Assembly: GCF_051903065.1 (NCBI RefSeq)
Contig: NZ_CP178438.1
Origin: Escherichia coli
GTDB taxonomy: Bacteria > Pseudomonadota > Gammaproteobacteria > Enterobacterales > Enterobacteriaceae
Strand: one strand, 5' to 3'
Length of the DNA: 64,000 nucleotides
Position 1 is the stretch's first letter; every line of letters starts with the position of its first letter. The translations under genes and the position numbers were made by a program. The notes beneath the pieces are model-generated. The model had not been told where the DNA came from and did not search any database. It worked only from the letters and a program-made list of their open reading frames with translations. Below, piece after piece: positions 16,234 through 16,274 of this stretch.

Positions 16234-16274
16234 AAAAACCGGGCGGTGGTGTCACCTGCCCGGCTTCTTTTGTT
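16234..16274. terminator. Bidirectional Rho-independent terminator between HD-Pnk gene and luxS
   Basis: aaaaaaa-ccgggcggtggtgtcacctgcccgg-cttcttttgtt: GC stem flanked by A-run and T-run, so it terminates both convergent transcripts. Confidence 0.7.

Follow-up and report, generated by a model that had tools for sequence, protein, structure and literature searches.

The window, the whole 64,000-nt stretch of Escherichia coli DNA analyzed here, contains the mprA-emrA-emrB/luxS/gshA region, in which two genes lie between emrB (12612-14159, + strand) and the convergent luxS gene (16282..16797, - strand; 171 aa, Pfam LuxS E = 1.6e-59). The first of these (14417..15124, + strand) encodes a 235-aa member of the RNA ligase family (Pfam RNA_ligase, E = 6.5e-28) and overlaps by 4 nt the start of the second (15121..16233, + strand), which encodes a 370-aa HD-Pnk-type protein with an N-terminal HD-like region and a C-terminal P-loop polynucleotide-kinase domain. 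The C-terminus of HD-Pnk is matched by the Pfam kinase domain AAA_33 (E = 3.5e-32), while the N-terminal HD match is weak and falls short of the Pfam cut-off (E = 0.012), although the motifs HHGEGD and LLHD can be recognized there. The kinase domain also matches chains of PDB entries 4gp6 and 4jst, which their depositors labeled 'Metallophosphoesterase' and which we take to be the kinase domain of C. thermocellum Pnkp. Comparison of the ligase with PDB sequences returned spurious hemocyanin matches only, with no significant stretch. On the far side of luxS, between luxS and gshA, lies the small RNA MicA (16866-16937, + strand; 83.9 bits), which has its own terminator at 16916-16933 and was the only Rfam family detected in a scan of 13900-17300 at E <= 1.

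The ligase/HD-Pnk cassette and luxS meet head-on. Between the HD-Pnk stop (TAA, 16231-16233, + strand) and the luxS stop (CTA, TAG on the minus strand, 16282-16284) are 48 nt, which read AAAAA-CCGGGCGGTG-GTGT-CACC-T-GCCCGG-C-TTCTTTTGTT-CCACTGA. This gap is occupied by a 25-nt G+C-rich hairpin (16239..16263) that can form on either strand and would serve as a terminator core. The 5' arm CCGGGCGGTG (16239-16248) and the loop GTGT (16249-16252) are followed by a 3' arm made up of CACC (16253-16256), a bulged T (16257) and GCCCGG (16258-16263), giving a stem of 10 bp with 80% G+C and a stability of -17.8 kcal/mol on either strand. On the cassette side of the stem, an A7 run (16232..16238) that shares its first two bases with the HD-Pnk TAA supplies the U7 tract of the predicted luxS-sense (- strand) terminator. 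On the luxS side, a single C (16264) and the T-rich stretch TTCTTTTGTT (16265-16274) make up CTTCTTTTGTT (16264..16274, + strand), an imperfect T-rich tail for the cassette-sense transcript. The stem begins 5 nt after the HD-Pnk stop and, in the luxS sense, 18 nt after the luxS stop; no second hairpin or terminator-like site was seen in the window between the HD-Pnk stop and luxS. The original prediction, of one G+C-rich hairpin with an A-run on one flank and a T-run on the other between HD-Pnk and luxS, agrees with both the sequence and the coordinates.

Folding and scanning set this hairpin apart within the window. In a 61-nt context, the RNAfold-based luxS-sense fold reaches -26.0 kcal/mol (z = -5.3), and none of 200 shuffled sequences folded as well. 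The cassette-sense fold reaches -20.4 kcal/mol (z = -2.1), with 8 of 200 shuffles as good, and so exceeds chance only modestly. A terminator scan of the whole 64-kb window, requiring a hairpin of -14 kcal/mol or better and, no more than 2 nt away, a tail of 8 positions of which 6 or more are T, detected 15 sites compared with 1-8 (mean 4.6) in ten dinucleotide shuffles; of all sites in the 64 kb, 16239-16263 alone scores on both strands. The built-in consensus promoter and terminator scan missed the true stem on both strands, finding a 5-pair register on the + strand only, because it allows no bulge; the RNAfold-based checks were used instead.

How strong would the signal be in each direction? 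The luxS-sense transcript has a stable G+C-rich stem shortly after the stop codon and a U-tract directly behind it, as expected of an intrinsic terminator, and the U7 tail that immediately follows the stem has a score of 4.95, equal to that of the MicA terminator. The cassette-sense tail of the window allele, CUUCUUUUGUU, is interrupted and scores 2.12. A single hairpin between convergent genes, with U7 on one strand and CUUCUUUUGUU on the other, has the layout of a two-way terminator, and for the window allele the original prediction of a bidirectional terminator stands as far as anatomy goes. As a general statement it fares less well, since the cassette-side T-run is degraded in most other genera and in about 83% of cassette-bearing E. 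coli: of ~1000 such genomes, 148 have a window-type 3' end (at least 99% identity) and ~832 fall in an 80-90% identity class with degraded flanks. Examples of the former are O145 RM9872 and JCM 5491, and of the latter ST131 and APEC IMT5155. In this common E. coli allele the A-run reads ACAAAAG and the T-run has been reduced to CCTCTTCTGCTT, while K. spallanzanii (TACAGCAC) and Superficieibacter (ATAGCCAC) have essentially no cassette-sense T-run. Over eight alleles, luxS-sense scores range from 1.2 to 4.95 and exceed the cassette-sense scores in seven; the latter lie between 0.6 and 1.5 in six. Among the cassette alleles examined, from E. coli, the cryptic clade and other genera, the U-rich luxS-sense tail persists throughout, with scores of 1.2-4.4 outside the window allele, and it is lost only in E. 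albertii.

Does the hairpin then serve luxS alone? It is possible, although we doubt it, that the T-rich run is incidental to a one-way luxS terminator, with the cassette transcript ending by Rho, by collision with polymerases from luxS, by decay back to the hairpin or in antisense read-through. Such a signal would account for the preserved luxS-sense tail next to low cassette-sense scores, and for the tails of K. spallanzanii, Superficieibacter and the common E. coli allele in particular. The position of the HD-Pnk stop would also suit it. A terminating ribosome that covers the 5' arm of a stem can lower terminator efficiency through transcription-translation coupling, and with the stop 5 nt from the stem a ribosome would cover that arm. 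In E. albertii, furthermore, the hairpin still adjoins luxS though the cassette has decayed and REP-like elements have split off the HD-Pnk remnant. Against a purely one-way signal, the cassette-sense tail of the window has 7 T in its first 10 positions and passes the terminator scan on the + strand, no other hairpin is available between the HD-Pnk stop and luxS, and the cassette allele of Enterobacter sp. (L012) has a good cassette-sense TTTT tail with a score of 3.15. We favor a shared terminator, of which the window allele is the most symmetrical version: a luxS terminator shared variably, and probably to a lesser degree, with the cassette.

Comparison across genera supports a function of the stem itself. 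Every genus in which HD-Pnk abuts luxS has exactly one hairpin, which lies 4-7 nt past the HD-Pnk stop, the two stops being 36-48 nt apart; a gap of that size leaves no room for separate terminators. Homologous stems, though not identical ones, are found in the cryptic Escherichia clade (GCCGGGCAG / CTGCCCGGC), K. spallanzanii (GCCGGGCAGAG / CTCTGTCCGGC), Enterobacter sp. (CAGGGCAGAC / GTCTGCCCTG) and Superficieibacter (CGGGCAGGGA / TCCCTGCCCG). In an alignment of eight sequences representing alleles and genera, 88.5% of cells are paired and compensatory double changes occur in 5 of 13 pairs. Of 500 column shuffles, 0-1 reached the observed values, and pairing falls to 24-56% once the partner columns are slid out of register. 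Within E. coli all stem bases are kept, while the loop (GTGT, TTTT or ATAT), the bulge and both flanks vary. Compensatory changes in the stem point to selection on RNA pairing; this covariation is supportive but not conclusive, because the eight sequences are related and the shuffle control ignores relatedness.

A stable G+C-rich stem blocks 3' exonucleases, and the hairpin might act as a 3' stabilizer, transcription ending further on and exonucleases trimming both mRNAs back to the stem, as at REP elements. Both the stability of the stem (-17.8 kcal/mol) and its retention where the cassette-side tail was not retained are compatible with this role, which we nevertheless regard as very improbable. 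In the luxS sense the stem runs straight into U7, which is the mark of a terminator and not of a stabilizer. REP and BIME elements, moreover, occur in many copies with a shared consensus; the hairpin is single-copy in the window, is found at a median of one place and a maximum of two per E. coli genome, and is therefore not a REP-type repeat, nor does it resemble the REP-like elements of E. albertii.

The cassette is present in 994 of the 5423 complete E. coli genomes that have the locus (~18%) and absent from ~82%. In the cassette-less strains compared (a K-12-like laboratory strain, O157:H7 611 and VE-T10), the emrB stop is followed by g-TACAACTAA-GCCAGTTCAtttGAACTGGC-TTTTTT-CAATTAATTGTGAAGATAGTTT-ACTGACTA, a 57-bp spacer with a different hairpin, GCCAGTTCAtttGAACTGGC, that stands in place of 2116 bp of the window. 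Identity between the window and this K-12-type allele stops at 14160, one base past the emrB stop, and picks up again at 16277, which is 5 nt past the stop of luxS. The strain-variable segment of the window (14161..16276) comprises the emrB and luxS terminators, a leader and the two cassette genes. Since cassette-less E. coli have no trace of the 16239-16263 hairpin, it belongs to this variable segment, and it would at the same time be the luxS terminator of cassette-bearing strains. The original prediction that the cassette stops precisely at the structure terminating luxS, if this means a luxS terminator already in place, is thus contradicted by the emrB-luxS junction of cassette-less strains, in which an unrelated spacer brings another hairpin and luxS of MG1655 ends elsewhere. 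Short-word BLAST of the 57-bp spacer against the window and all fetched loci returned chance matches of 11-12 nt only. The emrB/luxS junction is itself subject to change: in E. coli CUVET18-565 (L003, ~797-1507) a copy of IS200C sits directly after the T-run of the K-12-type emrB/luxS hairpin, and in E. coli strain 361 (L006, ~1500) a deletion fuses a truncated proX to a luxS that lacks its C-terminus, removing the mprA-emrAB region together with whatever emrB/luxS terminator the strain had.

Where does luxS transcription end in K-12? Published Term-seq data for MG1655 list, for three of three growth conditions, a minus-strand 3' end of very high abundance at 2814159, and its context string finishes just 3' of the K-12-type hairpin (L001, 770-789). 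Read in the way that the table's entry for MicA suggests, this luxS 3' end would lie ~6-7 nt after the stem. No emrB-sense (plus-strand) end is listed at the K-12-type hairpin. The luxS 3' end is among the most abundant of the region despite a poor luxS-side U-tract (UUAGUU), and the good T6 tract of the hairpin faces emrB, yet it is there that no emrB-sense end is listed. The MG1655 end suggests that luxS uses the first hairpin downstream, which in the window would be the one at 16239-16263.

Might termination here depend on the convergent partner? Hundreds of convergent gene pairs in E. coli have bidirectional terminators according to the SEnd-seq study of Ju et al. 2019, as summarized in the Wang et al. 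2022 preprint, according to which the hairpin of this class is needed to fix the collision site and brings about no termination alone. By such a mechanism the window hairpin would be a pause site that fixes head-on polymerase collisions, with the collisions releasing the transcripts, as its location between convergent stops, its conserved stem and its poorly conserved cassette-side T-run would allow. We consider this unlikely: the luxS side has a canonical U7 and needs no collision, and the SEnd-seq class is described as unlike intrinsic terminators. In K-12, in addition, the luxS end is strong at a hairpin that faces emrB with no emrB 3' end detected, so a convergent partner seems unnecessary at this locus. 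An intrinsic terminator remains our preferred reading for the luxS side.

How old is the cassette arrangement? In an HD-Pnk protein search with one genome per species, ligase and HD-Pnk genes were found directly after emrB in a divergent E. coli, the cryptic Escherichia clade (MOD1-EC7003), Klebsiella spallanzanii, Enterobacter sp. BIGb0383, Superficieibacter, Phytobacter and MAG UBA3516, with same-site cassettes in loci L008, L010, L012 and L013. At this species level the cassette always adjoins emrB in Enterobacteriaceae, and a convergent luxS follows HD-Pnk, as in the window, in Escherichia, K. spallanzanii, Enterobacter sp. and Superficieibacter. Nucleotide identity to K. spallanzanii is 79.5% for the ligase and 73.6% for HD-Pnk, compared with 83.3% for emrB, 82.8% for luxS and 77.0% for gshA; against B2-type E. 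coli the values are 97.3% and 96.1%, with 96.0-99.2% for the flanks. The divergence of the cassette is similar to that of its flanking genes. E. albertii NBRC 107761 (L032, 3960-4465) has a decayed cassette from which the ligase and HD-Pnk codons 1-282 have been deleted, leaving an 88-codon remnant (codons 283-370) joined to the tail of the emrB terminator; two REP-like palindromes lie between the remnant stop and the hairpin and have displaced the luxS-sense U-tract. By these measures an old cassette is well supported, and the part of the original prediction that held the insertion to be old and not a recent random event is borne out by four or more other lineages of Enterobacteriaceae that have the cassette at this site, the E. 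albertii remnant and a divergence equal to that of the flanks.

The left edge of the segment gives the direction of change. The emrB terminator of the window, AAAGGGAGCttcgGCTCCCTTT (14167..14188, + strand), consists of the hairpin AAAGGGAGCttcgGCTCCCTTTTT and a T-run, and homologous hairpins follow emrB in Salmonella, where a porin gene takes the place of the cassette, and in Phytobacter, UBA3516, K. spallanzanii and E. albertii. This terminator is the ancestral one and lies outside any insertion. Because the cassette-type emrB terminator is ancestral, the 'empty' K-12 allele is a derived replacement and not a virgin site.

That the hairpin at the right edge is an ancestral luxS terminator predating the cassette was rejected on present sampling: the luxS 3' flanks of K. 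pneumoniae, Enterobacter, Salmonella, Leclercia, Kluyvera and Buttiauxella have different hairpins, none of the CCGGGCAG type. Nor does the hairpin always accompany the cassette, as Phytobacter and UBA3516 have other genes and a different terminator after HD-Pnk. The cassettes of Serratia, Bacteroidota and Lachnospiraceae sit in other contexts. Judged from the sequences at hand, the hairpin is specific to the HD-Pnk/luxS junction. The emrB-luxS interval holds a porin gene in Salmonella, AraC and LeuA-like genes in K. pneumoniae and Enterobacter, MFS and GH3 genes in Kluyvera and YuaE in Leclercia, in other cases an FkpA-like gene, and nothing in Buttiauxella; each genus's interval has its own luxS-proximal hairpin. 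The interval behaves as a long-standing variable spot between conserved genes.

Such a spot raises the question of how the cassette arrived, and the original prediction had offered site-specific insertion. We found no evidence for it: neither of the two cassette ORFs is an integrase or recombinase, no repeat matching the hairpin occurs at the left edge of the segment, and searches for a close plasmid copy of the cassette returned only matches with <60% identity. The hairpin does lie at the right-hand edge of the segment in which cassette-bearing and K-12-type strains differ, and as a relic of insertion, the end of an element or an attachment site, its palindrome would reflect recombination rather than transcription. 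We regard this origin as extremely improbable. A mobile-element end or attachment site should have a recombinase, a partner repeat and copies at other sites or on mobile DNA. Neither a recombinase nor a partner repeat was found, within Enterobacteriaceae the cassette is always beside emrB, there is no transposase, and the left edge is the ancestral emrB terminator. The compensatory changes in the stem indicate selection on RNA pairing, and the K-12 boundary is a replacement rather than an empty target site.

The ligase start codon is preceded by a conserved non-coding leader (14204..14419, + strand), which follows the emrB terminator and is more conserved across genera than the adjoining coding sequence. 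Its invariant blocks are GGTTGTTTTATC...GGTGTATCTTT, CTTCCATTCACC and CCGGTTCTGAGC-loop-GCTCAGGTTGTT. The first is a possible promoter, with TTGTTT at 14212-14217 and TATCTT at 14235-14240 separated by 17 nt, and by inference the transcription unit of the cassette would start in the leader. The last is an invariant hairpin (14279-14296) with a T-rich tail that looks like an attenuator. A profile of the leader matches all emrB-linked cassettes and none in Serratia, Bacteroidota or Lachnospiraceae, and comparison with Rfam families gave no match. For the repair operon this segment may serve as a regulatory leader or as an RNA element.

One deletion cuts through the hairpin itself. O157:H7 TR01 (L043, 1469-1527) has lost 2058 bp corresponding to window 14193-16250. 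The junction shows 1 nt of microhomology, the breakpoint on the right lies within the hairpin loop, and what remains is the emrB terminator and, of the hairpin, the 3' arm only. The allele may amount to a natural knock-out of the terminator of luxS or may result from faulty assembly. Deletions of this type are not common, even in O157:H7: TR01 is the single case among 5426 genomes, and other O157:H7 have the K-12-type spacer. Neither the TR01 nor the E. albertii deletion yields the K-12 spacer.

Taken together, the hairpin is probably an intrinsic terminator, strong for luxS and weaker for the cassette, which was inherited with the cassette arrangement and is not a resident luxS signal. We infer termination activity in either direction from its sequence, predicted fold, conservation, covariation and the comparison of alleles. 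It would act as a Rho-independent terminator in a very compact convergent junction. Polymerase leaving luxS would pass an 18-nt 3' UTR, transcribe the 10-bp stem and then U7; this is the layout of a strong canonical terminator, and the window strain offers no other candidate for luxS. In the cassette sense the stem would form 5 nt past the HD-Pnk stop and be followed by CUUCUUUUGUU, for weaker and probably partial termination. Transcripts that read through from the cassette would be antisense to luxS, a point that the original prediction had made and that follows from the geometry alone. The emrB-ligase-HD-Pnk-luxS arrangement would have descended largely vertically since before the split of Escherichia, Klebsiella, Enterobacter and Superficieibacter, and most E. 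coli would have swapped the whole interval for the 57-bp spacer with a different shared terminator.

Why has the stem stayed constant while the cassette-side T-run weakened? One quite improbable answer is that the hairpin has been kept since before the genera split because it couples the two convergent units, which would hold the stem constant and leave the cassette-side T-run free to weaken. If so, induction of the RNA-repair operon, for example by RNA damage, would drive polymerases or antisense RNA into luxS, with less AI-2 synthase expressed as a result, and the strength of this effect would differ between the window-type allele, with its good T-run (148 genomes), and the common allele with its degraded one (~832).

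Other consequences do not depend on coupling. The annotation of the ligase/HD-Pnk pair should be corrected: it is not a recent island in ~18% of E. coli but is ancestral for the genus, and the K-12 state is derived. Across E. coli lineages luxS would end at non-homologous hairpins that differ in the quality of their U-tracts and in how much 3' UTR precedes the stem, 18 nt in the window against 34 nt in K-12. Conclusions on luxS/AI-2 expression carried over from K-12 to B2/ExPEC strains could be affected. The alleles also offer natural variants for tests of terminator rules, namely the window-type and degraded flanks, the half-hairpin deletion of TR01 and the REP-displaced U-tract of E. albertii.

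The cargo of the interval has a known counterpart. According to the account in PMC6097658 of the system of Munir and Shuman 2017, Runella slithyformis has a ligase ORF directly upstream of and overlapping an HD-Pnk ORF, whose product combines an N-terminal HD phosphoesterase with a C-terminal 5'-OH kinase domain. The window pair is like this RNA-repair pair in domain architecture and in its overlapping upstream ligase, a likeness of the cargo and not of the hairpin; unlike the Runella system, it has no adjoining Tpt1 or MTase-HIT genes. Bacteroidota homologs from Chitinophaga and Niastella (not Runella itself) are ~55% identical.

For the hairpin, a literature search on a luxS/emrB terminator returned nothing relevant; a hairpin shared by a convergent pair is a well-described and prevalent arrangement in E. 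coli, and this one is one more ordinary intrinsic terminator. Like the SEnd-seq bidirectional terminators of Ju et al. 2019, as described in the Wang et al. 2022 preprint, it lies between convergent stops, where transcripts arriving from either side would be expected to end; those are characterized there as dependent on collision and unlike intrinsic terminators, whereas the luxS side of the window has a textbook hairpin and U7. The K-12 emrB/luxS terminator GCCAGTTCAtttGAACTGGC occupies the same position, again as the one hairpin of two convergent genes, flanked by a T-run on one side. The two sequences are unrelated; at -12.3 kcal/mol the K-12 stem is less stable than that of the window (-17.8 kcal/mol) and also shorter, its good U-tract faces emrB and not luxS (tail scores of 4.47 and 2.43), and it is part of the derived 57-bp allele that replaced the cassette. 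Another comparison is the canonical terminator of MicA (16916-16933), which has an upstream A-tract and resembles the window hairpin in its G+C-rich stem, 4-nt loop and direct U-tract; the window hairpin is longer and bulged and, by its predicted structure, would be used, or at least be usable, from both strands.
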